Assembly (NCBI GenBank): GCA_964016885.1
Contig: OZ024743.1
Location: 235,600,001-235,664,000 of the forward strand
Length of the DNA: 64,000 nt
Reading direction: 5' to 3'
DNA from: Eledone cirrhosa
Taxonomy: Eukaryota
Below the pieces are notes generated by a model that was not told where the DNA came from, did not search any database, and saw nothing but the letters and a program-made list of their open reading frames with translations. The position numbers and the translations under genes were made by a program. This document shows, one piece after another, positions 1,581 through 60,994 of the stretch; within the stretch, counting starts at the first letter, position 1; each line of letters opens with the position of its first letter.

Positions 1581-1870
1581 TACTAGCAGCCATACCCGGC
1601 GTTGCCCGGGTGTAAGTCTACCATTAGTAAATCATTTTTTTAAAGAGAAAACAACGTAGCACGAACCCCCTAAAAACATTTATTTTTAACCATAAGAAGT
1701 ATGTGTTGTTCGATGTAAAAACGGTAAAATGTTATGGCATATGAAAGGTGAATGAGTGTAAAAGTGTGACGTTGACGCGGTGAAGCTCCAAACGCGAACT
1801 ATGCCACAAGGAAGTCAGCAGCCCAAAAGTGAGCCACATGGAATTTATGACAATAAATTACATCAGAGAT
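1581..1870. mobile_element. Probable Helentron/HINE-like non-autonomous element end
   Basis: TACTAGCAG followed by the GC hairpin ACCCGGCGTTGCCCGGGT, next to a (TA)n tract, resembles Helentron-associated element termini. The distal boundary is uncertain. Confidence 0.45.
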
Positions 1871-1881
1871 CCTGTTTTCGT

Positions 1882-1981
1882 ATTTTTTTTACACGCAGAA
1901 ATGCCCATTTGTAACGTCCTGTATTGTCCTAAACTGTCCTTAATGTCTACTTTATGTAAACCCTTGGGGTTAATAAAGAAA
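1882..1981 (+). mobile_element. Extremely 5'-truncated 3' end of the Tx1/L1-like LINE family
   Basis: Near-identical to about 16893-16990 (acacgcagaaatgcccatttgta...ttaataaagaaa). Confidence 0.85.
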
Positions 1982-2034
1982 GCATAATTATATATAGTTT
2001 ATATATAAGTATAAATATTATTATTATTATTATT

Positions 2035-2828
2035 CTTTGAGTCTCAGTCATTGATGTTAGTTAACTGGAAAGTTTGTTGAAATGAATATCAAGCCACTAC
2101 CTGCAGCCTCAGATATTCAGGACGTATCGGAGAGTTCTTGCTGTTCCCAGCAAGCATGCCTTTTGAAGTGTTCCAAAAAGCGGGGCGGGGCCAATTTTCT
2201 TTAACCATCCCTGAAAACTTTTTGAGATAGTACCTAGTGCGCCTATGACAATCGGGACCACTTTGACTTCATGGCAGTTCCAAATCCTTTTTACCTCCCA
2301 TTTTAAGTCCTGGTATCGGTTAATTTTCTCCCTCTCCTTCTCTTGCACTCTCGTGTCGAATGGGCAGGCCACATCCACAATCAGGCACGATCTTTTTTCC
2401 TTGTCCAAAACCACCAGGTCAGGTCTATTGTGTTCCAGTTTCTTGTCCGTCTGTATCCTAAAATCTCATAGCACCTTCACCTGATCGTTTTCTATAACCG
2501 ACTCTGGCTTATGCTCATACCACTTCTCAGAATGTGGTAAATTGTTTACTTTGCATAGGTGCCAGTGGATCACCCTGCCCATCACATCATGTCTCCAGCC
2601 TTTATAGTGAGTCTGGACTAGGTGTTTACACTCGGATACAATGTGAGCCACACTCTCCTCTCTCTCTCCACAGATCTTGCACAGTGGGCTAGCCTCCTCC
2701 TTGTAAATATGGTGTTTCAGCCACTTCGTTTTGAGGGCCTGCTCTTGCGTAGCCATTAGCATTCCTTCTGTAGCCTTTTTAAGGTCTCCTCTTCTCAACC
2801 AGTTCCATGTCTGTGGATCTCTGAATTC
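2035..2828 (-). mobile_element. R4/Dong-like RLE non-LTR retrotransposon, 5'-truncated (copy 1)
   Basis: CCHC knuckle ([18 protein letters not shown]) and restriction-like endonuclease (PD..D..K: RPDLVV...IVDVACPFD...EKINRY); flanked by (TTA)n on both sides. Confidence 0.9.
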
Positions 2829-2834
2829 CTATTA

Positions 2835-2866
<32 letters not shown>

Positions 2867-5800: not shown

Positions 5801-6576
5801 TTAGGATGTCAACCGAATCTTGTCCTAGCCCGTCAGCATTCATCTCCTCAGTGGCCGTATCTCTGTTCCAGGTATTATTTATCTCAGTATTCAGATCATT
5901 GTCTGCTTCGGGTGGTTCCTCCGTTCTCTCGACCTCTTCACCTTCATTTCCCACTGGCTCGTGTGTCTGGCATATTACACCCTCCATCTCCAAGCTATTC
6001 TCTCTGCTCAGTTCCTCCAGTTCCAGCTCGCTTATCCACCCATTAGTTCTTATTACCCGAGACTGCCCGGCCAATTTTTGTTCATCTAATTTAAATAGAC
6101 CAATCTCGTTCCAGATGTTATGCATCCGTTTCCTATTGCCTTTCTCCTTGGGGTTACTCTTCAGGTAACATTGCATAACAGTTCTATTCAATTCTTTCGT
6201 CCAGTTGGTTCTGGCCCTTTCTTTCTTCTCCTTCCTCCAACATCAGCAGTATTTGGTTGACAGTCAGGTTCCTGCTGCTAAGCCAGGGAGCACCTGTTGG
6301 GTGAGAGTCTGTCACATGACGTTCTAGTCTCCATTTCACCGTTATTCGAACTGTTTAGGTTCGATATTTAAACACTCTTATCGAGGATTGGCGAATGTAT
6401 GGTTACATAGCCATCTGTGGATTCACCGTCGCCGGTGTTTGCGCCGCTCCACTTGGCACTTGTGTGGCATTATCACCACGCTGTAGACGAACACAAATAA
6501 ACAAACAAACACACAGGCAGAAAAGACCCCAAAAATGAATAAGCATAAGTTTCATTGTAATCTAGTGTTCGAATGT

Positions 6577-6580
<4 letters not shown>
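2867..6580 (-). mobile_element. R4/Dong-like RLE non-LTR retrotransposon, near full length (copy 2)
   Basis: Single ORF remnant at about 6334..2941 with RT ([38 protein letters not shown]), CCHC and RLE domains, broken by stops and frameshifts; (TTA)n at both ends. Confidence 0.92.
2941..6334 (-). pseudogene. Disrupted RT-RLE polyprotein of copy 2
   Basis: ORF fragments 5043-6191, 4644-5003, 3450-4616 and 2941-3516 are collinear with copy 3; TGG>TGA stops at about 5043 and 4644. Confidence 0.88.
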
Positions 6581-6612
<32 letters not shown>

Positions 6613-6624
6613 GTTATTGTTATT

Positions 6625-9600
6625 CCTTGAATCTCAGTCATTGATGTTGGTTAACTGGAAAGTCCGTTGGATTGAATATCAAGCCACTACCTGCAGCCTC
6701 AGATATTCAGGACGTATCGGAGGGTTCTTGCTGTTCCAAGCAAGCATGCCTTTTGAAGCGTTCCAAAAAGCGTGAAGGGGCCGATTTTCTTTAACCATCC
6801 CTGGAAACCTTTGGAGATAGTCCCCAGTGCGCCTATCGGATCACTTTGACTTCATGGCAGTTCCAAATCCTTTTCACCTCCCACTTTAGGTCCTGGTATC
6901 GGTTAATTTTCTCCCTCTCCTTCTCTTGCACTCTCGTGTCGAACGGGCAGGCCACATCCACAATCAGGCACGATCTTTTTTCTTTGTCCACAACCACCAG
7001 GTCAGGTCTATTGTGTTCCAGTTTTTTGTCCGTCTGTATCCTAAAATCCCACAGCACCTTCACCTGACTGTTCTCCATCACCGCCTCTGGCCTATGCTCA
7101 TACCATTTCTCAGAATGTGGTAGATTGTTTACTTTGCACAGGTGCCAGTGGATCACCCTGCCCATCACATCGTGTCTCCAGCCCTTATAGTGGGTCTGGG
7201 CTAGGTGTTTACACTCGGACACAATGTGAGCCACAGTCTCCTCTCTCTCTCCACAGATCCTGCACAGTGGGCTAGCCTCCTCCTTGTAGATATGGTGCTT
7301 CAACCACTTCGTTTTGAGGGCCTGCTCCTGCGCAGCCATTAGCATTCCTTCTGTAGCCTTTTTGAGGTCTCCTCTTCTCAACCAGTTCCATGTCTGTGGA
7401 TCTCTAAATTCAGTTTTCTCAAAGAAGGTACTATGAAGGGATTTTCCCTTAAGGCTGCTCTTCCTCCTTGATGTTATTTCCTCCTTGGATATCCCCTGGC
7501 CTACTGTCCCCTCCTTCAGTACAGCTCTGAGCATTGGCTCCTTACTATAGGTCACGTATTTGTATAGGTTGTTTTTCTCCATATGAACACAGTCCTCTAT
7601 GCTGATAAGACCTCTTCCACCCTCAGATCTCCTTAGGTAGAGTCTATCGACATCACTCCTCTTGTGGAACATGTTGTAGATAGTCAATAGCTTCCTAGTC
7701 TTCCTATCCATTTCTTTTTGTTCAGCAACATTCCATCTCAGAATTCCCGCACTGTACCTAATAATAGACACAGCTCGGGAATTTACTGCGCTTATGGCAT
7801 TTCTGCTGTTCAGATGTGACTTCAATACGCTCCTTACTCTCCGAATGTATTCAGTTCTTAACAATTCCTTTATTTTTTTGTTCTTTATGCCATCAGCCTC
7901 CAGAACGCCCAAATACTTGTATCCTTCCTCAGAGTCAATTTCCTTTATCATCTCACCTGTTGGTATCTGGATCCCGTTACTTCTGCTCAACCTACCCCTC
8001 TTCATCACAATGACTCCACATTTACTAATACCAAACTGCATACATATATCACTGCTGAAAATACGGACAGTGTCAACAAGCACATCCAACTCCTTCTCAC
8101 TTTTCCCGAAGAGCTTAAGATCGTCCATGAAGAGGAGGTGATTGGTGGTAAGCTCTCCCCTTCCCAACTTGTATCCTGCTCTCACTTTTCGCAGCATAAT
8201 GGTCAAGGGCATCAGGGCAAGGACAAACAACAGAGGGGACAGGCTATCTCCCTGGAAGATACCTCTCTTGATCTTCACGCTTCCCAAGGATACTCCAGTT
8301 GATGTCAACTCTGTCTCCCAGGACCCCATACTCCTGCCCAGCAACTGTCTGATATTATCCGCCACCCTGAAGATCTCCAGGCTTTTGGTGATCCAGGAAT
8401 GAGGCACCATGTCAAATGCCTTTCTGTAGTCTATCCATCCCATGGCAAGATCAGTGTGTCTCCTCCTGCAATTCCCCATTACCATCTTATCAATAAGCAA
8501 CTGGTCCTTTGTACCACGTGACTTCTTTCGGCATCCTTTCTGTTCGTCCGGTAACAAGTTGTTTGTGTGGAGGTGATGGTAGATTTCCACATTACGGGCA
8601 GACATGTGATAGGTCTATAGTTGGTGACATCATTACCCTTGATTCGGTCTTTCATTATCAGAACTGTGGTACCTTTTGTCAACCACTCTGGCACCTCACC
8701 CGACACCAAGCAGTCATTGAACATGGCCGTCAGCTTCGGGTGGAGGGATGTTAAATGTTTAATCCAATACCCCTGCACACCATCTGGGCCTGGTGATTTC
8801 CAGTTGGTTAGTTTTTTGGCTTGCCCCTTAAGAGTTTCAACTGTGATACTCAAATCAGTCTGTTGCTGTGCCTGCTCACCGATCTCCCTCTGTACTGTCT
8901 CAATCCACCCTGCCTGGGCATTGTGTCTAACATCCTGCTCCCATATTCCTCTCCAGAATGTTTTAGCTTGTTCCACCCCAGGGATCAAGTCGTTGCCTCT
9001 TTCTTTCCCCTCAAGCTGTCCAAACAACATCTTCTGGTTGTTGTCGAACATGCGGTTCTGTTTATACTGACTGACTCTGTTCTCGTATCGCCTGATTTTG
9101 GCACTCTTTGCTACAATGCGTTGCTTCAATTCCTCTATGATAATATTTAGCTTTTTACTCCTAGTTTTGTATTTTATTTCCAGTCTATTTTTAGTGCCTA
9201 TGTTTTTTAGTGTCCCATTCAGTAGTGACTCAAGCTTTCCTATGTCATTTCTCATTTCCCCGATTTGCCCACTCAGTCGCTTCTTCCACCAAGGCTCTGC
9301 TCTTTCTTGTCTGTTGTTTCCTCTCGCTTTTATACCAAGTAGTTTCCTCACCGTATTTGCTGTTGCTTTGAGGATATTGTTGCACTGGTGAAGACTCCTC
9401 GCCTCAAGGTATGGGATGACTTTGTTTACCTTAGCTGTTGTTTCTTTTAACTTTTTCCTGTCTACAAATCTTAGGTTCATAGGTCTCCCACTATCATTGT
9501 TCAACTCATCTACCACTAAATTTAGGATGTCAACCGAATCTTGTCCTAGCCCGTCAGCATTCATCTCCTCAGTGGCCGTATCTCTGTTCCAGGTATTATT

Positions 9601-10280
9601 TATCTCAGTATTCAGATCATTGTCTGCTTCGGGTGGTTCCTCCGTTCTCAGGACCTCCTCACCTTCATTTCCCGCCGGCTCGCTTGTCTGGCATACTACA
9701 CCCGCCATCTCCAAGCTATTCTCTCTGCTCAGTTCCTCCAGTTCCAGCTCGCTTATCCACCCATTAGTTCTTATTACCCGAGCCTGCCCGGCCAATTTTT
9801 GTTCATCTAATTTAAATAAACCAATATCGTTCCAGATGTTATGCATCCGTCTCCTGTAGCCCCTCTCCTTGGGGTTACTTTTCAGGTAGCATTGCATAAC
9901 AGTTCTATTCAATTCTTTCGTCCAGTTGGTTCTGGCCCCTTTCCTTCTTCTTCTTCCTCCAACATCAGCAGTATTTGGTTGACAGTCAGGTTCCTGCTGC
10001 TGAGCCAGGGGGCACCTGTTGGGTGAGAGTCTGTCACATGACGTTCTAGTCTCCATTTCACCGTTATTCGAACTGTTTATGTTCGATATTTAAACACTCT
10101 TATCGAGGATTGGCGAATGTATGTTTACATAGCCATCTGTGGATCCGCCATCCCACTTGGCCCTTGTGTGGCATTATCACCACGCTGTATACGAACACAC
10201 ATAAACAAACAAACACACGGGCAGAAAGGGCCCCAAAAATGAATAAGCATAAGTTTCATTGTAATGTAGTATTCGAATGT
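6625..10280 (-). mobile_element. R4/Dong-like RLE non-LTR retrotransposon, near full length (copy 3)
   Basis: Highly similar to copy 2 over its whole length; 3' end abuts (TTA)n at 6581-6624. Confidence 0.92.
6699..10056 (-). pseudogene. RT-CCHC-RLE polyprotein of copy 3, broken by two small deletions
   Basis: 525-aa and 590-aa ORFs joined by a 28-bp frameshifting deletion at about 8588, plus a loss of about 7 bp at about 6836 relative to copy 2. Confidence 0.88.
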
Positions 10281-11116
10281 CTGACTTAGTTTTTGTTTTT
10301 TAAGTTTTACTTTTTCCCCCCTCTTCTCTGTCCGTCCGCCTGCTTCTCTCTTCATTCTTATTTTCTTTACGTTTTGGGGGTTTCTTTTTTTGTTTTTGTT
10401 TTTCTCTGTTTGTTTTTCTCGTTTTTTGCTGTTGTTGCTGTGCTGCTTTGGTTTTGTTGTTTGTTTTTTCTTTTTTCTTTTGAGTCTATCTATATATTTT
10501 GATGCCTTCCTCTTTGTTAGTAGTAGGAATTCTATAATGTGGAAGTGGCAGCCAGCAGAGACTGGCGGCGTTGGCGATACTGAGACAGTGGTGGTGGTGA
10601 TGTCGATACCGAGGCAGTGGTGGCGGTGATGCGACCGTATTACTGTAGTGATGGTGCTGTAGCGGTGGCAGCAGCAGTGAAGGAGTCAAGGGGTGGTGGC
10701 GGCGGTGATGGGATAGTGGTGGTAATGATGGCCGTAGTGAGCGGTGGCGGTGAAGGTGAAAATGCTGTTGTGTTTAGTGTACATAGATGATGGGGTGGGT
10801 GGTGTATCTAGTTTCTGGTGTTGGTGAGTTTAGCTGTCCTATATAGTGTAGCCAGAGGAGAGGAGGGGGGGGTCTTCTTCCATTTATAGCCATTTTTTTG
10901 GGGGGGATATACAGTGTACAATACAAAGTTGAATATTTGAATATTTGAGCCTTATAACAATATATTTTGGGTCCGAATTTTTTGGGGCTCAAGCCGGGTG
11001 CTTTACGTAGCATTTGTACTAAGAGTTGTTATTTCACAAATGATTTAAATATGTTAAAAATTCAAAACTTACGGGAGCGATTTCATGACCTCCATCACCT
11101 CGTGCGTCTTCTTCCC

Positions 11117-11139
11117 TATTATTATTATCATTATTATTA

Positions 11140-11204
<65 letters not shown>
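11117..11204. repeat. (ATT)n microsatellite
   Basis: Seen directly. Confidence 0.97.
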
Positions 11205-11657
11205 GGTGAGCTACGTAGTAAATCGTATCATCGTGAGCACCGCAAAGGTTTGTTATTTTCAGTTGTTTAAAATTGCTATTTATGGAAATTTTTTATTGTT
11301 AACTGTATATAAGTGCACATACATTGATTTCTGAAAAGGACACTCAAAAAGATTGGGGCTTTGAGCCCAAAATTTAAACTTTTTATAATTATCAAACAAA
11401 AAACTATCTTTGAAAAATCAGGGCCGACTCAGAGTCACATCTTCCTCACAAACTAACACCTCACACCGACACCACCATTGTAAATATTACTACGTTTTCC
11501 AACACTAAAAATATAACCAGTAGCAATATTTTAAATTTGTCTCAGGCAGACATTCATTTCCCGCCATTACCAATGACTGCAGGTGTTAAAGCCGCCACCC
11601 CACCACCACAGCGACAACAGAAACAAAAGAAAAAATAAATTAACTCGTGATATCGAA

Positions 11658-13308
11658 ATGAATTCAACCAAAATGAACTCTTCCACACCGAACACCACTG
11701 ACGCCACCACCACCACAACTGAAACAAAAATTAACAATAACAAAAATAACGATAACAGCAACAATGAAATTAAGAAAACCACCCTGAGTAGCAAAACAGT
11801 GCGAAGCATTCCAGGTAACTCAGGAGGAATTAGAAGAAGCCAAAAAAGTGTTAAAGAAAGATGGGTACAGGGTCAGCTTCACCCACCCACCTAATAAAAT
11901 GGAGCATCGGCGCCTATGCACCGTGCTTTATCGGACGATAAACATAAAATCGTGGAACGGGCATCCGAGTCCCAAATCCAAAAAGCTTTGGGACATGTGT
12001 GGGCAAAGAAAATCCACATCAGACGTGGGCAGAAATATGGAACCGTGGACGTGTTCTTTGAAACACCACAGGAGGCCAGAGAACACTCCATGGCCCCATT
12101 AAGAAGTGACGACTGTCCCAAGCTATTGTGGCCAGAGACTCATGAAGATCAGGGTGACCCACGTTCCACCGGCCATCTAAATTCCCTGGCTAATAGCTGC
12201 CGTCCTCGCCGGCGTCGAAGCCAACACCAAGATAATCGAAATAGCGAAAGAAAAGCAAGAGAACTGGTCCGGATCTGGGATGGAGCTCCTAATCCAAGCG
12301 GACCAAAAAAGCATTGAGGGGATCCCAGAAGTAATAGACCTCACTGACGGCAGCCACCTCACCGTAATCGTCGAGGGCAGAAGGCCTAGGTGTGTCGTTT
12401 GTGGTGAAGGAACCCACCTAAGGGCTTTCTGCCCTCAGGCTAAAAGGTTGAGGCCACCTCTCTTACCCACCCCAGTGACTCAACCATCAACACCACCAGC
12501 AGCAGAGATGGCAGCAACAACTGTAGCAGCAACAACAGAAGCAACTGTAACAGCAACAACCCCAGCAACAGTAACAAAACCAACACCACCACCACCCAAC
12601 ACGCCAGAACTAGCACCAGCGCCTACACCATCCACCACGCCACAACCAAAACCAACGCCTGTGGAGGATTTTCCACTCCCCGGCCTATCATAACTGGAGA
12701 CAGATTGTGACGATGAGGAGTGGGAAACGGTATCAGGAAAAAAGAAATAAAGAAACCAAAAAAGAAAAAATTCTCTTCCCTCCCCCTCCAAAAACAAAAT
12801 ACAAAGGGAAACAAATAAACTATCAAACAAAAATGTTAGGACAGATATGCTACCATCCACACCAGCATCACCAACCCCATTACCACAAACACCAACACCA
12901 TCACCATCATTAACCCCAACACCACCATCACCAATACCACAAAAGTCACCAAAAAGCGAAACAGAAACAAACCCACAACAAACGCAAACAAAACAAAACA
13001 ACCAAAACGATACACACTACACAGCATTAAATTTGAACAACAACCAATTATTACACTACATCCAACACAACACCAGCATCACAGAAAAAGACTACACAAC
13101 AACCCAAAAGTTCACACAACCTCCACACATACAAATCACTCGCATCACACAGAAAACGTACACGACACTAAAACAAAAATTCCCCAAAGACATCGGAGAC
13201 TTCCGACAAGCACTCTCCAGGAGGATTTATAAGGACATCCTTCCGGAGGAAGCCACAAGCAGTGAAAAGGATGGAGAAACCATCCTTCCTCTACGAGAAG
13301 TAAGGTAA
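11658..13308 (+). pseudogene. ORF1 (gag-like) remnant of the Tx1-like LINE
   Basis: Frameshifted pieces including VEGRRPRCVVCGEGTHLRAFCP (CX2CX4HX4C) followed by Pro/Thr-rich low-complexity sequence; boundaries are approximate. Confidence 0.65.
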
Positions 13309-13342
13309 GTCGTCTTTCCCATCTTTTCCACTCCATTTCAAT

Positions 13343-16300
13343 ATGACCTCACTCAGAATAGGCAGCATAAATTCGCGTGGCTTGGGATCGTCATAGAAGC
13401 AGGGCCACCTGCTCAACGACCTCAGGTCACTAAACATAGATGTAGTGGCCTTCAGCGAGACCAGAATCTCCAAAGCACGGGCCTTCGCACCTATCTTCGG
13501 CGGCTACGATGTGTACGCATCTCCCAGCCGTCCTGTATCAGGGGAGGAGTTGCTGTGCTTTTTCGGAGAGATTTGGATCTCGCCATACGGGCCATCTTCC
13601 TGGACCCAGAAGGTAAGTTGGTGGTGCTGGACGTGACCAGCGAAGACGGGCAAGCTTTCAGGCAAGTGGCCGTCTATGCCCCGACAGGAGCAGGACGGCC
13701 TGATTTCTTCCGGCGTCTGGAGACCTTTCTTGGAACGTCCCGCTTTTTAGTGTTAGTGGGCGACTGGAACGGGATCTTAGATGCACGCTGGGACTGTGTG
13801 GGATTAACGGATAGGGGAGGAGAGTGCAAGAGCCTCACCAACCTGCTCAGGCATTTTGAACTGTCTGAGAGTTACCGATTGGATTTCCCGAATGTGCCAA
13901 TGTGGACTTGGACAAATCGCGTAGGGTCATCTAGATCATATCTAGATAGAGTATTTTGTAGGGAAATAGATAGGTCTAGCATAGGCTGTCAACAATTCAA
14001 GATAGTCAGCTACACGGACCACAAATTCGTGATCTGTGTGCTTGACTTAGATAGGCTTCATAGACGAGGACCCGGCTACTGGAAGCTAAACGCGTCCTTA
14101 CCAGCGCGAAAGGCCTACAGAGACTGGATTCGAGAACTAGTTAAGCGGGCGTTGACGGGGGCCATCGTCAACAACAAGTGGTGGTTTGCTCTGAAAAGAG
14201 CGATTAGAATAGAGTCCATTAGGTTTAGTAAGGCTTTAGCAATAGAGAAAAATAGAGCAGAGGGAGAACTAGTTAGAAAATTAGACGAGGCACTTAGCAA
14301 AGGCATCGCGACCGACGTACTTGCGGCGAAATTGCCCCTTGACCAATTCTTCAATGCAAAGCACGAAGGCTGCGTTGTCAGAGCTAGGGTGCGTGCTCTC
14401 AGACACGAGGGGACGAAAGCCGTTCAACAGGCCCGAGTGGCGGAGGCGCGTCGTGGAAACAAAGCCACGATCCGGTCTTTGGTGGACCACGACGGGCGCT
14501 GCTACTCGATCCCGGGCAAATATGTGAAGCTTTTCAGCGACACTTCTCCCAGCTGTTCGCGGGCAGCGACGGGCCGAATCGAGGGATGGACTTTAGTGTC
14601 TACCTCGACGGACTGCCGCGGCTCTCGCCCACTGAGGCGGAGTGTTGCGAAAAGCCGATAACAGCCGCTGAAGTACGGGAGGTAATGACTGGCTGCACAA
14701 GGGGTAAATCGCCTGGTTTGGATGGTCTGCCCTATGAACTTTACGTACAGATGCCAGACTTGTTCGGAGGCCTCTTGGCGGACGTCTACTGCAACTGGCA
14801 ACAGAACGGGAGAATTCCCAGCTCTGTGAGCCGAGGAGCTGTGGCGCTGCTGAGAAAGGATCCGAACAAGGGGGATTACATAGATAATTTCCGGTCCATA
14901 ACTCTGCTAGACACAGAGTTCAAGATTTTGGCCAAGGTGCTAGCAAAGAGGTTGGCGCTTGTCGTTGGTGGTCTGGTGGGAGAGGCGCATACGTGCGCCA
15001 TTCCCGACAGATCCATCCACGACAACCTCCACCTCATGCGATACATCGTAGAGAGGGTAGCTAGGGAACCTGGCACGGGTGGGTCCTTGATCAATTTAGA
15101 TCAGTCGAAAGCTTTCGATAGGGTCGACCATCGTTACCTAGCGGCAGTCCTGAGGGCGGCTGGCTTTGGTCCCGTCTTCAGAGGTTGGATCGCTGCCATG
15201 CACAGCGAAATCTGTTCTTTGGTGAGAGTGAACGGTCACTTTTCGGAACCGTTCAACATCATGCACTCGGTCCGCCAAGGATGTCCCCTCTCGTCCCTCT
15301 TGTACGTATTGACTCTCGAGCCATTACTGCACAAACTGGAGACGTTGAGGGGGGTCCCGCGGGAACTAGGATGCGGAAGATCCGTGTCAGCATATGCGGA
15401 CGATGTCACCGTAGTGGTGTCGAGCGCCAAACACATCGAGGCAATCGGCACTACACTAAGAGAATACGAAGCGGTGACAGGAGCAATGATCAACCAGGAA
15501 AAGTCAGTGGGCCTGGAGCTCGGCACCTGGAGAGGCAGGTCCATGCTGTCCAACAGCGTCGTCGGGCGCTGGACGGACGGACCGGTTAAATTGCTAGGGG
15601 TCTGGTTCGGTCTGGACCGCCAGACGGACAAAAACTGGGACGAGGTGACGAGCAGGGTGGCTTCTCTCACCCAGAAATGGGCGGAGAGGAAGCTATCCCT
15701 GAAAGGTCGAGCGGAGGTGGCTAACGCGTACATCGCGTCCGTCATCTGCTACCGCCTGACCGTCGTACCTTGTCCTAAGCCCCGCCTGACTGCGCTGAAG
15801 CGTTTGCTCTTTCGCTTTTTGTGGAAGGGAGGCCATCTGCTGTCAACCCCCGCTACGTGGAGGGCTGGGCATGCCGTGGTTGATGATGCGCAGACACGCG
15901 CTCAGGCTACGACATCTCCACCTATTCCTCGACGGTGATCAGGTGTGGTCGCCGTTTGCTAGACACGTCCTTCCCCAGCTCGTCCCCTTGACGGAGCTGC
16001 AGTCCTGGGTCAAGCGAAGACCGAGAGGGAGCGCTTGGAGACTGGAATGTCTTCAGGCGCTCACAGCCCTCGACCAATCGGGCAATGTGATCGGTGGAAA
16101 CTCCACCTTGGCGTTCTATAGATGATTAGTGGAGGGGAAGAGCGACGACGTACTTGGAGAAACTCTAGGCGTCGACAAAAATCAACTAGCCTATCTCTTC
16201 GGAAGGACTTTCGGGCCGGGGCCTATGGACAACTTCCAGAAATCCCTGGCCTGGCAGTGCTACCGAGGAGCTTTGCCAGTTCGGGATAAACTCTACAGGC

Positions 16301-16740
16301 ATGGAGGTGCCGTCAGCCGGGCATGTCCGAGATGCGCGCAGGGCGACGAAACCGTCCTGCACGCACTCGTCCAGTGTCCGAGAATTACTGACTTGTGGGT
16401 TTATGTCGAACACCTGCTGTCGCGTGTAGGACGGATCCGGCTATCAGCTAAGTCCATCGTGAGGATTGCCCCGCCCTCTTCCTTTAGTCGGGAAGAACAG
16501 ACAGTTTTTATCTGTCTGGTGGGCATGGCGAAAGAGATAGTATGGTGGACACGTTTGAAAGGGCTGAAGACGAGCACTTACCTCTTCGGTGATGCCCTGA
16601 TTGACTTTTTCAAATTTCATTTGAAAAGGAAAATCAGAGTAGAGAGGGAAGTGCTCTCTTCCCATCATTTTGTTGAAAGATGGGTGAGAGAAGCAAGTAT
16701 GGCCCGAGTGAATGGGCCTACTCTGAGTATGTGTCTGTAA
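13343..16740 (+). pseudogene. ORF2 remnant: AP endonuclease, reverse transcriptase and zf-RVT
   Basis: MTSLRIGSINSRGL, VYAP, VGDWN, YLDRVF, YTDH, GYWKLN, KSPGLDGLP, DQSKAFDRV, VRQGCPLS, AYADD, CPRC..DETVLHALVQC; several frameshifts. Confidence 0.9.
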
Positions 16741-17156: not shown

Positions 17157-17240
17157 ACCCTCTGACGAAAGTCTTCTTCTCAATGGATTTCTGCATGGAT
17201 TATCCATTTATTTTGAAACTTGAAGCCGTACGGTAAGGGT
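17157..17240 (+). ncRNA. Type I hammerhead ribozyme motif (core variant GAAG)
   Basis: ACCCT-CTGACGA-AAGT...ACTT-GAAG-CCGTACGG-TA-AGGGT: stem I ACCCT/AGGGT, long stem II, palindromic stem III. Confidence 0.7.
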
Positions 17241-17633: not shown

Positions 17634-17717
17634 ACCCTCTGACGAAAGTCTTCTTCTCAATGGATTTCCGCATGGATTATCCATTTATTTTGAGACTTGA
17701 AACAGAACGGTAAGGGT
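17634..17717 (+). ncRNA. Type I hammerhead ribozyme motif
   Basis: ACCCT-CTGACGA-AAGTCT...AGACTT-GAAA-CAGAACGG-TA-AGGGT; intact core, mutated stem III. Confidence 0.7.
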
Positions 17718-40466: not shown

Positions 40467-40904
40467 TAATATTTTTATTAGACAAACACCACCCAGTCCA
40501 CAATGTAAAGTGGTCGCATAGGTGTCGCAAAAAACACCCAGTCTGTTATAAGGCGTACATGTGAACTGTGTTACATGGCAGTGAGACATGGGCCTTGACT
40601 GTAGAAGACCTGGGCAGGCTAGAAAGAAAGGGGCCATGCTCCATGTTTAATGTCAATGTGCAGTATAACATAAGTGAGTTGGGAGAAAAACTATATAAGA
40701 CAGGTGTGATGCAGTGTGCAAGAGACAAGACTGCAATAGTAAGGACATGTGACAGGTATGGAAGATAACAGGTATATAAAGAAATGTATATATATATATA
40801 TATATTAATATTAAGTGTTTCCGTAGGAAATGTAAAGGAAAGGAGAGTGCTCTATGTATACTACAGAGCTATTTAGTTATGTAATTAACAACATAAGACA
40901 ATTA

Positions 40905-40977
40905 TTTCTTTTACCAAAGGTTTCACGAAGACAGACGAGCTTGACACAGACGTTTGAAATCGTTCGTCAGAACGAAA
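40905..40977 (-). ncRNA. Type I hammerhead ribozyme motif (inverted copy)
   Basis: TTTCGTT-CTGACGA-ACGA...TCGT-GAAA-CCTTTGG-TA-AAAGAAA; one stem I mismatch. Confidence 0.68.
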
Positions 40978-41111
40978 ATTTATTTAAAACGGATGTGAGA
41001 TATGGATTTCAAAACATTTATTATTTTCCTCTTTACATTACGTCCATTATTTTATTTCAGCCTCACTTAGACTGTTTTGAAATCCATATCTCACATCCGT
41101 TTCAAATAAAT

Positions 41112-41184
41112 TTTCGTTCTGACGAACGATTTCAGATGTATGTGCCAAGCTCATCTGCCTTCGTGAAACCTTTGGTAAATGAAA
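41112..41184 (+). ncRNA. Type I hammerhead ribozyme motif
   Basis: TTTCGTT-CTGACGA-ACGA(tttCAGATG...CATCTGcct)TCGT-GAAA-CCTTTGG-TA-AATGAAA; all three stems pair. Confidence 0.8.
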
Positions 41185-41678
41185 TAATTGTCTTATGTTG
41201 TTTATTACATAACTATATATATATATTTAGAGCTCCAATACTATAGTCATGTGGTCAGAATGTCTCAGGAAAGAATCAATGGTCATATTTTACAGGCAAA
41301 ACCAGCCGGCACAAGACCCAGAGGTAGACGCTAAGCAAGGATAACATCCATGAGCTTGGCTGGTTTTGCCCGGGGGATCCATCCAGGTCAGTTGGAGATG
41401 GTTGCTTCTGACAGGACCTGTTGGAAGGAGTGTTTGAGGACTCTGCCCCCACAACCCACTTAGGAATAAGTGGGCGAAGAAGAAGAAGCATACTTATTTA
41501 TCTATTTCATCATCATTTAACATCCACTTACCCTCCTAAATGTTGATGATATTTATATAAAATAATCAAACATTTAGAAGGGTTTAAAAATATAACTGCC
41601 TCATTATTAAGCTGGTTCTCACATGAAATTATGATTACAAACTTCCAGCTTTGTACCATAGCTTCAAAGATGGTTTAA

Positions 41679-42040: not shown

Positions 42041-42193
<153 letters not shown>

Positions 42194-46009: not shown

Positions 46010-48590
46010 TCATCATCATCATCAACGTTTAACGTCCGTGTTCCACGCTTGCATGGGTTTGGACGGGGGTTTTCCCACTTGAGGCAAGAGTGATTGTCTT
46101 GCTCGCATAGGACTTTCTGGCAGGTTTTCTACAGTTGGATGCCCTTCCTAACACCAACCATTTACAGTGTTGGTCTGGGAGGTTTTTACCGTGTTGCCTA
46201 CACAGCCACATTACAGCGTGGACTGTGTGTTTTTTTGTCGTGACACCTACACGATCTCACTTGTTTCGGCCTGGATGGTGTGGCACCAACATAACTTTAC
46301 ATAGAAGGGGGCGGTGTGGATGGGGTGGAGGGGGGGGGGGGGACGGGGGTGTATTTTGTTAGAGATGCCTACTGACTGTAGTAGGTTTTACTATGTATTT
46401 AGGTAAGGCGGGTCTTCTCTATTACTGAGTACCGCCAAAGGTCTCGGTCCAGTGACATTGTCTTGGAGAGGTGTAAGTGTGTGAGGTCGGAGTTTATCAG
46501 TTCGTCCCAGGTTTTTCTGGGTCTGCCTATTCCATGGCTACCGTCTATCTTTATTGCCCTGCACTTTGTTATACAGCCATCGTCTTTCATGCGCATCACG
46601 TGTCCATACCAACGTAGCCTTCTCTCGAGTAAACAACATCTGATCCCTCTTATTTCTAATTTTTTCCTTAGTTCGTTTATGCTTTGCCGTTCACGTATAT
46701 TACTATTACACATCCAGCGGAGCATGCAAGCTTCGTTCCTCTCTAGTCTGCGTATATCCTCTGCACACAATGCCCAGGTCTCACTGCCATGCAACATTGC
46801 TGTTCGTATGCAGGCATCATACAACCTGCCTTTCATTTATAGGGAGAACCCTTTAGCGGCTAATAGTGGTATAAGCTCTCTGAACTTTTTCCATCCAGTT
46901 CTGACTCTAGCTACTGTACTTTCAGAGCACCCTTCCCCACTGCTGATTTTGTCACCCAGGTAACGGAAGCTGTCCACTATTTCTATAGAGCCCTCTGCGC
47001 AGTTGAAAGAGCTAGTATTTTGTGGGCACTTGCTGCTACTTATTGCACCAGAGCACCGGCCACATGTGAAATCTATGTTCTTAGTTAGCTTACCTGTGAT
47101 CCCACTACATCTTTTATGCACCCATACTTTGCATTTCTGACACAAAATGGAGTTTCTACCTACGCCTTTCCTACACACTGAGCATGGCCACTTCCCGGAA
47201 GGGACCGCCGCCTTATTTTCTTTCCTACAAACTAGAACTTAGGTCTTAGCCAGATTAATTTTAAAGCCTTTTGATTCTAGGCCGTGCTTCCATGTTTGGA
47301 ATTTCTTCTTTAGCTCGGCCATTGATTCAGCTATGAGTGTTAGGTCGTCTGCGTATAGGAGTTCCCATGGGCAGCCGGTCTTGAACTCCTCTGTTATAGC
47401 CTGAAGGGCAATAATAAATAGTAGGGGGCTGAGAACAGAGCCCTGATGGACGCCAACTTTTACGCTAAACTCTTCACTATATTCGTTGTTAATTCTAACC
47501 TTGCTGACTGTTTCTTTATACATGGCTTGTATAGCTCTCACAAGCCATTCGTCGACACCTAGTTTTCTAAGGGCCCACCAGATAATGGAACGGGGGACTC
47601 TGTCGAAGGCTTTCTCCAAGTCGACAAAAGCTAAGTAGAGGGGTTTACTTTTAGCTAGGTACTTCTCCTGTAGTTGTCGTACAATGAAAAGAGCGTCTGT
47701 GGTACTTTTGCCTGACACAAACCCGAACTGCATTTCATCTAGGTCAATTCTCTCCCTGATTAGTTGCGCTATTACTTTTTCCGTGACCTTCATGACCTGG
47801 TCGATTAATTTAATGCCTCTATAGTTACTCCTATCTAGGGCATCTCCTTTACCCTTATAACAGTTAACGATGATGCTGCTATGCCAGTCCTTCGGAACAA
47901 CCCCATTCTGTACGACTTGGTTAACTATCCGGGTGACCCATGGTGTGACCCACCGTGCCAGATGCCTTCAGCATCTCAGCAACTATTTCCGAAGGCCCAG
48001 CCGCCTTACCCGTCTTCATATCCTTGATTGCCTTACTTATTATACTACCCTCGACTAACACTGCTGGTCCCTCTATTGGGTCGATGTGGGGTAGACTGTC
48101 TTTCTCCCATTTAATCTCCTCATTTAGTAGCCTTTCATAGTGACACTTCCAAGCTACCTTCTTATCAGCATCGGTGATGGCAAGTACGCCGTCATCATTA
48201 AGTACACACTTCTCCCCGACAATATCACGGTTTTCCTTGACACATTGCCTAACAATCCTGAACACCTCATGTTTTTGGTCCTCGCGTTGTAGAACATGCT
48301 TGAACTTTCTTTCCTCTGCTTCCCTTCTTACGAAGTACACTTGTCTCCTAGCTTCCCTCCTGGCCACTTGATAGTCTTCTCTACTTCCCCCATCCGGCCA
48401 TACTTTCCAAGCCTGCTTTTTGGCCTTAATTGACCCCTCCACCTTACTGTTCCACCACCATGTTACTCTCCTCCAGCCACAGACTTCGTCTGCCGCCATC
48501 AGCAGATTTGCTTTCAGGAATTCCCACTGTCCCTCTATATTGTCCGACTCTAAATGCTCTTCCTTACTGTCGAAAGCATCAAGTAATATT
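46010..48590 (-). mobile_element. RTE-clade LINE, 5'-truncated and decayed
   Basis: RT motifs (KAAGPS, QFGFVSGKST, FVDLEKAFD, GVHQGSVLSP, LLYADD), a Cys/His finger, RRLRWYGHVMRM, GRPRKTW and a (GAT)n tail. Confidence 0.92.
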
Positions 48591-48609
48591 ATATATGTAT
48601 ACATGTGTG

Positions 48610-50190
48610 TGTGCCAGGAAGAGGCACCACTGATGCCCTCTTCCTTGTGGGGCAGTTACAGGAAAAGTACCTAGTTAAAAGTAAGCCACTCTACCTGGCA
48701 TTCGTCGATCTCGAGAAAGCATTTGACAGAGTTCCCCGTGCTATAATCAGGTGGGCTCTTAGAAAACTAGGAGTAGATGAATTGCTTGTGAAAGCTGTAC
48801 AAGCCATGTATAGGGGAGCAGTCAGCAAAGTTAGGATTAGCAATGAGTATAGTGAAGATTTTAGTGTACAGGTCGGTGTCCACCAGGGCTCTGTTCTTAG
48901 CCCTATCCTGTTCATCATATTCCTGCAGGCAATAACGGAGGAGTTTAAGACCGGATGCCCATGGGAACTCCTCTATGCAGATGACCTCGCACTTATAGCT
49001 GAATCTATGTTAGAACTAGAGAAGAAATTCCAAACTTGGAAGCAGGGACTAGAAAGAAAGGGTCTCAAAGTCAACCTGACAAAGACTGAGGTCCTTGTAA
49101 GCAGACGAGAAAACAGAACCCAAATCCCCTCAGGGAAATGGCCTTGCTCAGTATGTAGGAACTCCATTCTCTTCCCCAAATGCAAACAATGGGTACACAA
49201 GAGATGTAGCAGGATCTCAGGAAGCTTAACTAAGAATGTAGGCTTCACATGTAGCAGATGTGCTGGGACAGCAAGCAGCAAACAGCCACAGGAAACAAGT
49301 ACCACCAATCTCTGGGAGGGCTCTGTAGAAACAGTAGACAGCTTCTGCTACTTAGGTGACCGAATTAGCAGCAGAGGTGGGTGTTCGGAAAGTACAATAA
49401 CAAGGGTAAGAACGGGATGGAAGAAGTTCAGGGAGCTACTGCCACTGCTAGCTGCAAAAGGCTTTTCCTTCAAAATGAAAAGCAGACTGTATGATGCATG
49501 TATACGAACAGCAATGTTACACGGTAGCAAGACCTGGGTGCTGACTGTGGAAGACTTGCGTAGATTAGAAAGAAACGAAGCCTGCATGCTCCGATGGATG
49601 TGTAATAGTAATATACATGAATGGCAAAGCATCAATGAATTGAGAGAGAGACTGAGCATAAGAGGAATCAAATGCTGTGTGCAGGAGAGGCGGTTGCGTT
49701 GGTATGGACATGTGATGCGTATGAAGGATGACAGCTGCATAAAAAGGTGCAGAGCACTAGAAGTCGATGGAAACCGCGGAGTGGGGAAACCCAAGAAGAC
49801 CTGGGATGAGGTGATAAAAGCCGACCTTACCCAATTACACCTCTCAAAGGCGATGACACACGACCGTGACCTCTGGTGTCACGCAGTAATGCAGAAGACC
49901 TGACCCCCCATGGGTACAAGCCAAAGCTGAAGCATATAGACAATATGCCCCACACCCTCCCACTCTGTAATGTGGATGTGTAGGCGCCACGGACAAAAAG
50001 CACCCAGCACTCACTGTAAATGAGGTTGGTGTTAGGAAGGGCATCCAGCTGTAGAAATCAAACCAGAATCAGTTCCCGTATGAGCAAGACAAGGTCAGCT
50101 GACCTGACACTGCCCACAACAGGACAACCCGTCTAACCCATTTTAGTGTGGAAGAACGGACGTAAAACGGTGATGATGATCATGATGATG
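48610..50190 (+). mobile_element. RTE-clade LINE, 5'-truncated, with a 432-aa open ORF remnant
   Basis: ORF 48605-49903 has the same motifs as the minus copy; (GAT)n tail. Confidence 0.92.
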
Positions 50191-55860: not shown

Positions 55861-56610
<750 letters not shown>

Positions 56611-56802
56611 TTATTACATTACTTAATCTCGGGTCCCAAATAATAGGGATGTGTGAAATAAGTGTATGTGTGTGTGTAGGGGGTTTGGAAAATCAGAATT
56701 AGTCGTTTAGTTTACATATTGAGACTCCAACCCATCCTATATATTTTATAAAGTATGACATTTCTAGTAATGTACTTTTTTGTCATGTATAATGATTTTT
56801 AA

Positions 56803-57022
56803 CTCTTTAGCATTTAAACCGGCCGTATCTGGCCAGAATTATCTCACCTTTTTCTGTTCAAACCAGCCATAACTGGCTGCTCATACTGATGTTAAGGTAT
56901 TGTTCTCAAAATAAATAATATAAAAATCTCATAATTCGATATTATGTGAGATAATTATGTGAAATAAAGTGTTTACCATGAAAATACAATAGTAAATATA
57001 GAGTAATGTAAATGCTAAAGGG
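56803..57022. mobile_element. piggyBac-type MITE (220 bp), opposite orientation to the 41679 copy
   Basis: TTAA flanks and the same TIR and body. Confidence 0.88.
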
Positions 57023-57421
57023 TTAATGTAAAAATAAAATTCAGAGACACCAACCAACCCACCTACCTACCCAGTTAATAACTGGTATTTCATTAATGTT
57101 CCACTAATATGCTGCTTGGTGGGAGGCCGCCAACTTTATGAGCTGAAGTACGTAACAGACACGGTAAACCTCATCAGTATAAAGTGAGCTACTGTTTATG
57201 TAAACAACTAATCTTTTAATAACAGTTTTTTTCTTCTTTTATGAGACTCATTCTGTTTTAACAAAGTCTGATGTTATATTTAATGTATAAATATAAACTT
57301 ATCTCTAACATGACTACCATCACCAGAAATATCACTATCTCTCTCTCTATATATATATGTGTGTGTGTATACAAAAAAGAAAATTTTCGCTCTACATGGC
57401 TGAATACAATAAATGTAATCC

Positions 57422-57750
57422 GAGTTTCTCGAATATTAATAATAACATTCGATTCGTTTGCAATTATGCAAACAAGCCTCAATTTTATAGCCATGTCAGT
57501 AGAATGAACCCTTCATTCTTGCTCTTGTGTTGGCATGTGAACAGAACTGCAGACACTAATGTTTCTGGGTATCACCCTTCATCAGTACAGCTCACTGTTC
57601 ACCTGCCAAGCTGTCAGAGCTAGTGATCGGTTCACATGCTAACAGAAGAGCAAGAATGAAGGGTTCATTCTACTGACATGGCTATAAAATTGAGGCTTGT
57701 TTGCATAATTGCAAACAAATCGAATGTTATTATTAATATTCGAGAAACTC
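57422..57750. repeat. Inverted repeat (121-bp arms, 87-bp spacer); Penelope pLTR-like
   Basis: 57422-57542 is the reverse complement of 57630-57750. Confidence 0.9.
57544..57593 (-). ncRNA. Minimal type I hammerhead ribozyme motif
   Basis: GAGCTGTA-CTGATGA-A-GGGT gat ACCC-A-GAAA-CATTAGTG-TC-TGCAGTTC; 8-bp stem I with GU pairs, GUC site; the stem II closing pair is non-canonical. Confidence 0.75.
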
Positions 57751-59740
57751 TGCTTTTGTTAGTAATTGCTTCAAATTTTGCTTTTGTTAGTAATTGCTTC
57801 AAATTTTTCGGCTGTCTTTTACTAAGAGTCAAAGATCGATCTGTGATTAAGCCTTTTAATTGATTACTTTGAGCAATGATCGGTAGGTTTGCTTTGGCAG
57901 TGTTGAAGATATTCTGGGACCATTATAAATGGTATGACCAGTTCTTGGTTTCTTCTTCCTTGGGTTGTCCTAAGTTGTTGTATAGGTATTTTTATAGCCC
58001 GCTGTATGCCATTTTCTATAAGTAGAGATGGGTATTTTTGTTTGAGCAAAAATTCTCTTAGTTCTGTTAGGTGTTTGTTCCTGGTATTCGTATCTTCTAC
58101 AAAGGTACAAATTCTTCTGGCTAGGCAGTATGGGATGTTGCGTTTTGTATGAGGCACGACTTAAAATTCAGATATTGATAGGTGTCTGTGTGTTTATAAT
58201 ATATATCAGTGGTAATGGTAGTGTCGTTTTTGATTACCATTATTTCTAGGAATGGTAATTTGGTACTACTCATCTCTTTTGTGAATTGGAGAGATGGGTG
58301 TAGGTTATTCAGGAGGATATAGAACTCATCCAGAGTATCTAGAGATTCTGTCCAGATGATGAAACAGTCGTCAAGGTATCTCTTCCAAGATTTTTCAATG
58401 TACTTTCTAAAGTTAGTACTATATTATTCCTCTATTTTTTGGTAGAGTTGTTGTTCTAAGTACCCCATTACAGAGTTCGCGTAAACGGGAGCAAACTTTG
58501 TTCCCATCGTTGTGCCTCTAATTTGGATGTAATTCTTTCCATTGAAGAAGAAAGTGTTGTTTTCCAGAATAAGTTTGACTGCGTCTAATATAAATGGTGC
58601 TGTGAATCTGGTGGGAATCACTTCTCTATGTTTTTCCACCCAGTATTTAACCGCCTTTATTCCTAAATCATGTGTAATGTTGGTGTAAAGGCTTTAGAAA
58701 GTACATTGAAAAATCTTGGAAGAGATACCTTGACGATCGATCTTTGACTCTTAGTAAAAGACAGCCGAAAAATTTGAAGCAATTACTAACAAAAGCAAAG
58801 TTTGACCTTAACAACAAAGACCAATCATTCACTTTATCTAATTGCAATGATAGTCGATGTGGCACATGTCAATCCATACACGCCGGTCAATATATGAAAA
58901 CAAAAACTGGAAAAATATTCCCAAATGCAAATATGAACTGCAAAAGCAGAAATCTAATTTACTGCATTAAATGCCCGAATTGTGAAGAACTATATGTCGG
59001 TCAAACTGGTCAAATGCACTATCGGAACGTGCATGGGTACACCGACAGCAAATCAGAGACCCAAATGTCCGCCAGATTCCCCTGAGTAACCATCTAGCAA
59101 CATGTGGTCAGAGAATATTTATATTTCCATTCTACAAATTACACAGCCCAAGTGAAATCAAAAGAAAAATCAAAGAAAAGAATTTTATTGATAAATTCCA
59201 ACCCAAGCTAAATGAACAATAATAATGGGGTATTAATCCTACCATGACTGACCACTAACAACAACAACAACAACAACAATAATAATAATTTAAAAAAGTG
59301 ATGTTGATGGTGATGATTACTAGAAAATGCTATTTTCATCATTTCTAAAAATAGCAAAACAATTGATGCTTTGGATAGGGTCAAATAGTAGTCGTTAGAC
59401 ATGCTCAACCAACCGTGATGCCTAAACCAATCAGCTTTAGTAATCCAGTGAAACTACACACCGATTGGTCGAAATACAGTTTGCAAGATTTAGCATTCTG
59501 TAGCCACTTTTCACTGTATATAAGGCACAAAATTAACCCATCTCATTACAGTTGAAAATTGCAAACTTGACTGTCACCACAGAATATGAACCTAAAGATT
59601 ACGAAAGCATGAAAGTACTTGTTCAATTAACACTTAATATTTAATATTCTACCATACTATTTCATTCTAATACCATTATATATTTTAAAGGATTGTAAAT
59701 AAAACGGAATTCCTTTTATTAATATAATCTTCTATACACA
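57751..59740. mobile_element. Rearranged Penelope-like element (RT on the minus strand, GIY-YIG on the plus strand)
   Basis: Minus: ILENNTFFFNGKNYIQIRGTTMGTKFAPVYAN, WKRYLDDCF, PFLEI, HTKRNIPYCLARRI. Plus: KRQPKNLKQLL, CNDSRCGTC, NCKSRNLIYCIKCPNCEELYVGQT. Short segments are present twice in inverted orientation at the junctions. Confidence 0.9.
59587..59625 (+). ncRNA. Degenerate minimal hammerhead in the Penelope 3' pLTR
   Basis: TGAAC-CTAAAGA-...-GAAA-GTAC-TT-GTTCA; the core has a G>A change, so it is probably inactive. Confidence 0.5.
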
Positions 59741-59811
59741 ATCATACACACCTGTGTATATTTATCTCTCTATATATATATAGTTATGTAATAAACAACA
59801 TAAGGCAATTA

Positions 59812-59872
59812 TTTCATTTACCAGTGGTTTCTTAAAAGCAAACAAATTTTGCTTTCAATCATCAGAATGAAA
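59812..59872 (-). ncRNA. Type I hammerhead ribozyme motif (mirror copy)
   Basis: Exact reverse complement of 59937-59997. Confidence 0.8.
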
Positions 59873-59936
59873 AAATCCTGGTGTATTTATTGGCATTGGT
59901 TTTTAAAATCCAATGCCAATAAATACACCAGGATTT

Positions 59937-59997
59937 TTTCATTCTGATGATTGAAAGCAAAATTTGTTTGCTTTTAAGAAACCACTGGTAAATGAAA
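59937..59997 (+). ncRNA. Type I hammerhead ribozyme motif
   Basis: TTTCATT-CTGATGA-TTGAAAGCAAA atttg TTTGCTTTTAA-GAAA-CCACTGG-TA-AATGAAA; 7-bp stem I, 11-bp stem II, short stem III; predicted cut after 59990. Confidence 0.82.
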
Positions 59998-60847
59998 TAA
60001 TTGCCTTATGTTGTTTATTACATAACTATTAAGCTGTTACCTACATAGAGCACTCTTTTTTCCTTGACTTTTCCAACGGAATTACTTCATTCACACACAT
60101 ATATATATATACACACACCAATTTTTGTATTAGAATGGCCCATATTACATACAGACACACCTGTACACACACACATATATACATAAGCTGCAACTGCAAT
60201 AAAGACCACTCTAACCTAGTTAGTCTGGAAAAGTGGACATAAAAACGATGGTGACAATATATATTTATTCTCTGAATTCTATCTTGAGATGTTTTTCCAG
60301 ACAAGACGTTTAATTTTGTATCATTCTTATATTAGTAAAATAAGTTGGATTACTTTGAATAAATAATGAATGAATATTACATAATTTATCTACTAAATTT
60401 TGTGGCTGTTCATTAAATATATTTTATTACTTATTTAAAATTTTCAAATGTCAACACTTCCGGTTAGCGATCGTTTAAATAAACATTCATATATTTCCGT
60501 AATTAATTTTCTCCTAATGCAGATTATATATAATATCGTCTTTTTTTAATGTATCATGGATTACATTACTGATTACATAAGACAGTGTAACACAGTCTTT
60601 GTTCAATTTCTGTGTATATTGTCAATTATGATTTTATTTGATGTATTATATCTACATGTGTATATATACCTGCGTATAATATCAATATACACACTACACA
60701 TGCTAGCAGAAAACCACCCTAAGGGTGGTTTTTCTGCTAGTAAGTAGTAATAATAATATATATATTCATTAATTTCTGTATTAGAATGAGCCATATTACA
60801 AACAGACATACATATATACCTGTACACATACACATACATATATATTA

Positions 60848-60994
<147 letters not shown>

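Follow-up and report, generated by a model that had tools for sequence, protein, structure and literature searches.

Penelope-like elements (PLEs) typically leave inverted, 5'-truncated copies with a tail on one side (PMC8557442). The closest described relatives of the feature analysed here belong to the Hydra clade of these elements, which is characterised by RWK and DKT motifs, a CxCX5C linker, CxxC and CxH motifs and no CCHH, and whose members are generally shorter than 3 kb, as a tendency only (PMC8557442). In the Hydra element Penelope-13_HM, a 5'-truncated inverted copy comes with a hammerhead on each strand (PMC8557442), and dual hammerheads on opposite strands, 100-700 bp apart, have been described elsewhere (PMC4209133). 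A single metazoan PLE hammerhead motif showed no cleavage and dimers showed low cleavage (PMC4209133). In vitro, the protein of the Poseidon element of Anolis carolinensis, a predicted dimer, cuts both strands of the target and extends them; reverse transcription starts on the sense RNA at two internal sites bounding the tail, and insertion proceeds without need for hammerhead cleavage (PMC11167929). The origin of PLE inverted repeats and one-sided tails is still treated as open in both PMC8557442 and PMC11167929.

We analysed a 64,000-nt stretch of the Eledone cirrhosa genome (assembly GCA_964016885.1, contig OZ024743.1, positions 235,600,001 to 235,664,000 of the forward strand; hereafter the window). 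An original prediction, made from the letters of this stretch, had described a spacerless 250-bp palindrome with a hammerhead ribozyme on each strand inside an AHCYL intron and had proposed it as a possible undescribed class of fold-back ambisense mini-elements. We are close to certain that the palindrome is a PLE inversion stump. Its arm is the hammerhead-bearing pLTR of a coding Penelope-like retrotransposon, whose motifs place it in the Hydra clade, and the palindrome is an ordinary insertion product of that known clade, in which the presence of ribozyme motifs on both strands follows from inversion. Coordinates are collected in Table 1.

Table 1. Features of the palindromic insertion, its host intron and a neighbouring sister-family pair (window coordinates).
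Feature	Position	Strand	Basis
Type I hammerhead motif, right arm: CTGATGA 59944-59950, GAAA 59978-59981, GTA 59988-59990	59937-59997	+	descriptor scan
Type I hammerhead motif, left arm: core 59865-59859, predicted cut 59819	59812-59872	-	descriptor scan
Left arm, inverted 5'-truncated pLTR copy, short end against (TA)n	59780-59899	-	sequence comparison with family copies
Right arm, pLTR copy	59900-60029	+	59905-60029 100% identical over 125 nt to 9 other loci among 40 candidates scored
Junction, native imperfect palindrome of the element around TTTTAAAA, hot spot for arm joining, holds the mismatch at 59900	59896-59913		family-copy comparison, folding
PLE tail, ~62 nt here (~64 nt in the family), right arm only	60030-60091	+	family-copy comparison
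(TA)n target remnant, left side	59767-59779		sequence
AHCYL exon upstream of the host intron	60866-60960	-	AG/GT borders
AHCYL exon downstream of the host intron	56488-56586	-	AG/GT borders
Two arms of a sister PLE family facing head to head across a 56-nt spacer; tail on the left arm, short end on the right	40810-41219		sequence comparison

The two arms (59780-59904 and 59905-60029) are reverse complements at 124 of 125 pairs, with the sole mismatch at 59900, in agreement with the near-perfect arms originally reported for a palindrome at 59780-60029. The unit as first delimited holds in its arm symmetry but not in its end at 60029 or its clean centre. Comparison with family copies showed that the left arm ends at the family's short end and that the right arm is the tailed one, the family tail extending the insert to ~60091. 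Likewise, the junction is not a clean centre, as the arms overlap across the element's own TTTTAAAA. The mismatched base at 59900 is the element's native upstream base, and both the missing spacer and the single mismatch are explained by the position of the junction at the native TTTTAAAA site. Compared with copies of the L002 type, the tail of the window's insertion carries a 2-nt deletion and two substitutions and its right arm carries no differences; the deletion motif was seen in no other fetched locus.

The host intron spans 56587-60865 (4.3 kb). AHCYL is read from the minus strand, on which AdoHcyase-family exons extend from C4:235,700,457 to window position 42041. Since the two minus-strand exons listed in Table 1 flank the palindrome, its predicted placement in an AHCYL intron is right, and the distance to the 5' splice site of this intron is ~775 nt. 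Both flanks were mostly (TA)n at the 50 pair loci examined. A target-site duplication is not definable, because the flanks are themselves (TA)n microsatellite.

The descriptor scan found a complete type I hammerhead motif on each strand, pointing outward as originally described. The CUGANGA and GAAA core, three stems and a NUH site are all present; on the plus strand, stems II, III and I measure 11, 3 and 7 bp and the cut is predicted after 59990. The strand of the left-arm hammerhead (minus) is the one read in the AHCYL pre-mRNA. An Rfam search, which had been proposed as a check, gave no match to a hammerhead model, returning only generic hairpin (miRNA-type) matches below the gathering score. 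The G10.1-C11.1 pair is absent and a U-A pair closes stem II; the same pair is missing from several of the Hydra motifs listed in PMC8557442. The stem III of the motif is self-complementary, as in Hydra-clade hammerheads, and by eye the motif differs from the listed Hydra motifs, including Hydra-1_oBim (PMC8557442). With the metazoan PLE hammerheads of PMC4209133 it shares the type I architecture, a long helix II, a weak palindromic helix III and predicted dimers; in contrast to them, its helix III, though short, is retained, and helix II is closed by U-A in place of G-C. Two common stem variants in the family (G-U/G-C and U-A/U-G) retain pairing, and a third (column 47) breaks the pair that closes stem II.

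In folding predictions, one arm adopted the hammerhead shape at -13.9 kcal/mol with a stem III pair probability of only ~0.4, and an arm dimer held by the self-complementary stem III reached -36.8 kcal/mol, versus 2 x -13.9 kcal/mol. The right-arm hammerhead is predicted to be of the dimer type, and the ribozyme of the parent element is likewise predicted to need a dimer. The full palindrome folded as one hairpin (-193 kcal/mol), and a long hairpin forms on either strand. As had been anticipated, a transcript from either direction makes the antisense arm first, and the predicted fold places the ribozyme in a duplex; the hammerhead of the palindrome would be buried in 125 bp and silent. Given this predicted burial, the insertion into the AHCYL intron would be nearly neutral. 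The protection of the host that this implies would follow from hairpin geometry and need not be selected. Two further, weaker descriptor matches in the window (17162-17235 and 17639-17712), which form a direct repeat 477 nt apart and have a poor stem II or III, are probably due to chance.

Other copies of the arm were sought in the 3.0-Gb assembly, in which all genome-wide counts were taken. The arm gave 1104 first-look candidates, 40 of which were scored (Table 1), and an exact 24-mer of the arm had 1350 matches genome-wide. Upstream of the arm, longer copies contain a microsatellite-rich 3' UTR and, before it, a frame with YRDD and a GIY-YIG-type motif, by which 20 ORF loci were picked (10 for long open frames and 10 from the top of the list). 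Locus L084 has a 711-aa frame with YRDD and VVY..YVG. Arm and tail lie downstream of RT/GIY-YIG ORF pieces in most of these loci, and directly upstream of the ORF in L085, L098 and L100 (the tail only in L084). As arm and tail precede the ORF in tandems, we identify the arm as the pLTR and the tail as the beginning of the unit that follows. The Penelope-like origin suggested at the outset is therefore confirmed, with arm and tail adjoining an RT/GIY-YIG ORF.

The L084 ORF carries RWK at 41, DKT at 118, CxCX5C at 556, CxxC at 659 and CxH at 690. Its endonuclease is C-terminal and it has no CCHH, there being no cysteine between the GIY and YIG halves. The frame had 789 relatives at E <= 1e-30 (cluster representatives); among 25 aligned sequences, D118, K119, C556, C558 and C564 were invariant, RVT_1 was matched by four and GIY-YIG by two. 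The L084 ORF itself had no significant Pfam or PDB match, and a PDB profile search gave only non-significant RT matches. The C-terminal GIY-YIG, RWK, DKT, the CxCX5C linker, the lack of CCHH and the (TA)n target are all shared with Hydra-clade PLEs (PMC8557442), which points to this clade on the evidence of motifs. The preference for (TA)n is seen in the outer flanks of nearly all 50 loci, which are TA repeats. The ORF and 3' region of L084 alone cover 1904-5980, ~4 kb, which exceeds the usual length in the clade because the 3' UTR is long. The parent also differs from described Hydra PLEs in the microsatellite content of this UTR, in a second hammerhead with mostly a GUG site and in a tail of ~64 nt, compared to 30-40 nt (PMC8557442). 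The family may already be catalogued in the supplement of that study (PMC8557442).

This second, internal hammerhead of the parent element precedes the terminal copy by ~1.1-1.5 kb, or in one case by 2.4 kb (L068, 2894-2967; L084, L085, L087, L088, L090, L092, L094, L095 and L097-L103). After removal of five spurious pattern hits, the cleavage site was GTG in 21 of 24 inner copies versus GTA in 28 of 28 terminal copies, all of them related and not independent. Inner and terminal hammerheads co-folded through stem III at -43.5 kcal/mol, and the internal GUG-site hammerhead may, on this model, be an uncut dimer partner. Two other leads were set aside. A GIY-YIG remnant at 58678-59220 of the window, at first a candidate for the parent, was not matched by the L084 ORF in tblastn and belongs to a different PLE. 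Four 3-11 kb pairs on C1, considered as possible direct pLTRs flanking a 10.7-kb element, turned out to consist of copies that were separate or inverted.

Copies of the family end in (TA)n at two places, either directly past the arm (short) or ~64 nt further on (long). Genome-wide, we counted 461 close head-to-head pairs with an exact core 12-mer in both arms, compared to 0 in controls; gaps of 24-54, 55-85 and 86-116 nt accounted for 113, 250 and 98 places, respectively, some of the listed rows being sister families. The 68-nt gap of the window was the commonest among the first 50 of the 250-pair class (14 of 50). These 50 loci comprised 42 short+long pairs, two short+short pairs (one borderline), one long+long pair and five unclassed pairs, the like-ended ones being L122, L136 and the borderline L120. 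After one duplicate (L147/L148) was dropped, 41 of 44 pairs had mixed ends (P = 8e-10 versus 50:50). In a second set of 64 loci, which overlaps the first in that it includes the window and three first-set loci, 36 head-to-head pairs within 1.2 kb were found, with 31 mixed, 0 alike and five unclassed. The sister-family pair at 40810-41219 and L173 were also mixed-ended. The duplicate loci L147 and L148 (C2:68.21 and 68.61 Mb) lie 400 kb apart and hold the same palindromic insertion between the same flanks, one being inverted relative to the other; a segmental duplication or a duplication in the assembly is the likely cause.

Longer inversions extend to kilobases. Where both ends were visible, they were mixed in L086, L087, L090, L091, L095 and L103 and long+long in L084 and L092. 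The arm extending further 5' may have either type of end; it is the short-ended one in L015, L017, L025, L039, L086 and L087, and the inverted arm consists of the tail alone in L010, L014 and L050. A second, inverted piece was present within 1.5 kb in 11 of 28 distinct position-ordered loci (L031-L060), and 18 of the 20 ORF loci had an opposite-strand element piece within 8.5 kb. Inversion is the normal landing form of the family, and palindromes are largely no commoner than ordinary Penelope inversion would yield, which counts against the class first proposed.

The arms of one locus resembled each other more than they resembled the arms of other loci, with a divergence of 2.8% versus 7.0%, and minority letters were shared by the two arms 139 times, compared to 40 times on average and 70 at most in permutations. 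Rare variants were mostly confined to one arm (90 vs 12), the pattern expected of arms that started out identical or nearly so and diverged after insertion. The same one-armed rare variants, together with a modest difference between arm and tail in the share of rare variants (1.2% vs 2.1%), led us to reject repair-driven homogenisation of the arms as a main force. The 47 scored palindromes fell into 17 haplotypes, and for 26 of the 47 the haplotype also occurred among UTR-attached arms, in a sample biased to the subfamily of the window. The asymmetric junction base was on the short arm in L006, L128 and L152 and on the tailed arm in the window, L123 and L160. The many haplotypes, the varied junctions and the presence of the junction base on either arm indicate that palindromes were made repeatedly and did not spread as a unit.

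In uninterrupted copies, a U-rich tract runs into the first bases of the arm and forms the native TTTTAAAA within an 18-nt imperfect palindrome. In copy L002, this was the only such centre inside the arm or up to 99 nt upstream. Junctions vary but cluster at this site. A clean overlap of at least 7 nt was found at 10 of 50 junctions versus 8 of 400 random joins, many of the other junctions having been mis-measured by the script; the automatic microhomology measure is confounded by subfamily variants and homopolymer slippage, and its values (32 of 50 negative) are not trusted. Many junctions contain short extra bases. Many of the listed junctions also hold short repeated pieces of neighbouring sequence, which resemble polymerase theta-type end joining.

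With good confidence, we interpret the feature as a minimal head-to-head insertion of a Hydra-clade PLE pLTR, that is, of the 3' end of the element, likely formed at integration. For the route, the end products incline us moderately towards double priming with joining of the cDNAs by microhomology. The RT-endonuclease would nick both strands of a (TA)n target, and each target end would prime a cDNA, one at the short start site and the other ~64 nt downstream at the tail end, both probably copied from the same RNA. Synthesis of the two cDNAs would end prematurely, in many cases close to the U-rich tract that immediately precedes the pLTR, where weak rU:dA pairing is a possible reason for such stops. 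Microhomology would then join them, self-complementary sequence offering the easiest site; since two same-sense cDNAs can anneal only at such a sequence, this would explain the junction hot spot. Long cDNA runs would give kilobase inversions and short runs would give palindromes such as that of the window. In L1 twin priming, a second priming at the other target end likewise leads to an inversion joined by microhomology; however, the two L1 parts do not overlap, whereas here both arms copy the same 3' stretch from starts ~64 nt apart.

Poseidon is the described system nearest to this route, sharing two 3' ends that bound the tail of the pLTR-ORF junction, AT-rich targets and a hammerhead upstream of the start sites (PMC11167929). 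It differs in belonging to another clade, in the location of the start sites (inside the ORF, versus ~119 nt before the first ATG seen here, in L085) and in that inverted insertions are left unexplained in the accessible parts of PMC11167929. Start-site choice in that assay was equal between the strands (PMC11167929), so the assay alone does not predict one short and one long end. Against double priming, the shared haplotype could stem from two RNAs of the one subfamily active at the time rather than from one RNA, and like-ended pairs exist. The PLE insertions of PMC3846280 resemble those described here in the head-to-head inverted pLTRs with a tail on one, the junction palindrome and the microhomology joins. 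Beyond that study, the whole insert here can be two pLTR ends only, the rule of one short and one tailed end is counted, and double priming fits our data better than the antisense self-priming proposed in PMC3846280. Neither a counted short+long rule nor a model of PLE inversion by double priming was found in the non-subscription literature searched.

The main competitor, which we consider unlikely, assumes the same parent, with the inversion arising by fold-back: an antisense template or the first cDNA would prime itself at the palindromic site, and the endonuclease would later trim the two ends. It would fit the junction hot spot at the palindrome, where 14 of 50 pairs have the gap of the window, as well as the haplotype shared by the arms; PMC3846280 interprets junction palindromes in this way, and PMC8557442 ascribes the tail to endonuclease resolution. 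However, the short arm often reaches further 5' than the tailed one, and in some pairs the inverted arm consists of tail alone, so a cDNA started at the short site cannot have been the template for the tail. To yield the end rule and such tail-only arms, trimming at two exact sites would additionally be needed, and PMC11167929 places the tail ends at RT start sites on the sense RNA.

That the host has co-opted the hairpin, whether as a substrate of ADAR or Dicer or as a ribozyme switch regulating AHCYL, is very improbable. While the intronic position ~775 nt from the 5' splice site and the predicted 125-bp duplex would suit such a function, the insertion is recent, given that its arm is 100% identical to other dispersed copies, and nothing distinguishes the window's pair from other pairs or gives evidence of conservation.

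We find it harder still to credit a self-propagating, viroid-like fold-back ambisense ribozyme element that is mobilised as a palindromic unit, a proposal that the data have already largely refuted. Ambisense viroid-like RNAs have ribozyme motifs on both strands; in contrast, both polarities in the stump derive from DNA inversion. The near-spacerless copies, which number in the hundreds and carry an exact core 12-mer in each arm, and the recurrent junction would be expected of such a unit, but the spacing runs from 24-nt gaps to kilobases, the haplotypes are many, the asymmetric junction base switches between short and tailed arms, and outward cuts by one sense hammerhead per strand cannot release a unit. 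With the arm identified as the pLTR of a coding PLE, junctions and haplotypes varied and inversion normal, the undescribed class first proposed is not supported. Non-LTR retrozymes (PMC7229834; bioRxiv 10.64898/2026.07.22.740005) share with the stump the type I hammerhead, the small size and the link to PLEs; however, they are head-to-tail tandem repeats giving circular RNA, whereas the stump is head-to-head with one sense ribozyme per strand. No head-to-tail tandems of this type (150-400 nt, a hammerhead each) were present among loci L001-L060 and L106-L112. As a caution for genomic and transcript data, a rod-like fold with ribozymes on both strands need not be a viroid-like RNA and can instead be a PLE inversion stump.

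The least probable explanation, an assembly or library fold-back artefact, could draw on the fact that chimeric reads can produce near-perfect palindromes and on three contig sets and one RAD-seq run that gave family-level pile-ups and, with flanking-repeat rows dropped, no record across the locus, but the symmetry ends at a biological boundary (short end versus tail), the lone mismatch is the element's own base, and dozens of differently flanked loci, as well as the sister family, follow the same end rule.

Returning to double priming, the stumps may constitute a genome-scale record of PLE integration, a broader proposal on which we are evenly divided. One enzyme dimer would use one RNA and prime both target ends, one from each of the start sites bounding the tail, with the cDNAs annealing at a self-complementary site; in addition, the internal GUG hammerhead would be a dimer partner that is not itself cut, which would restrict cleavage to the terminal GUA site. 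If this is true, a single step without an antisense template would explain why the pLTR is inverted, why the tail is on one side only and why a palindrome lies at the junction. The family is young, its minimal insertions number in the hundreds and follow the short+long rule almost strictly, and their junction hot spot is mapped, all of which allows exact predictions in vitro. Ordinary as an element, the stump has its value as a test bed for PLE integration.

Other mobile elements surround the insertion. The sister family of the 40810-41219 pair had 1158 first-look candidates; it has the same hammerhead core, a different and longer stem II and a related tail hairpin. The pair lies ~800 nt past the last AHCYL coding exon, possibly in the AHCYL 3' UTR. 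Positions 57417-59779, in the same intron as the palindrome, hold a remnant of a different PLE, with minus-strand RT fragments, a Neptune-like plus-strand GIY-YIG piece that has Zn-finger-like cysteines, and internal inversions at 57422-57750 and 58692-58805. The palindrome is located in a TA repeat at the end of this remnant, and its insertion therefore looks nested. Several non-LTR retrotransposon RT frames (RVT_1, zf-RVT, endonuclease) occur at 430-16740 and 46403-49903 of the window, one set forming a long inverted repeat (46411-49900), and a Mos1-like HTH fragment lies at 430-1473. Elsewhere in the genome, locus L130 (C6:28870581-28871507) contains an AHCY copy, possibly a retrocopy, with an uninterrupted 320-aa frame that seems to be without part of its C-terminal half, and a multi-exon AHCY copy is present on C1.
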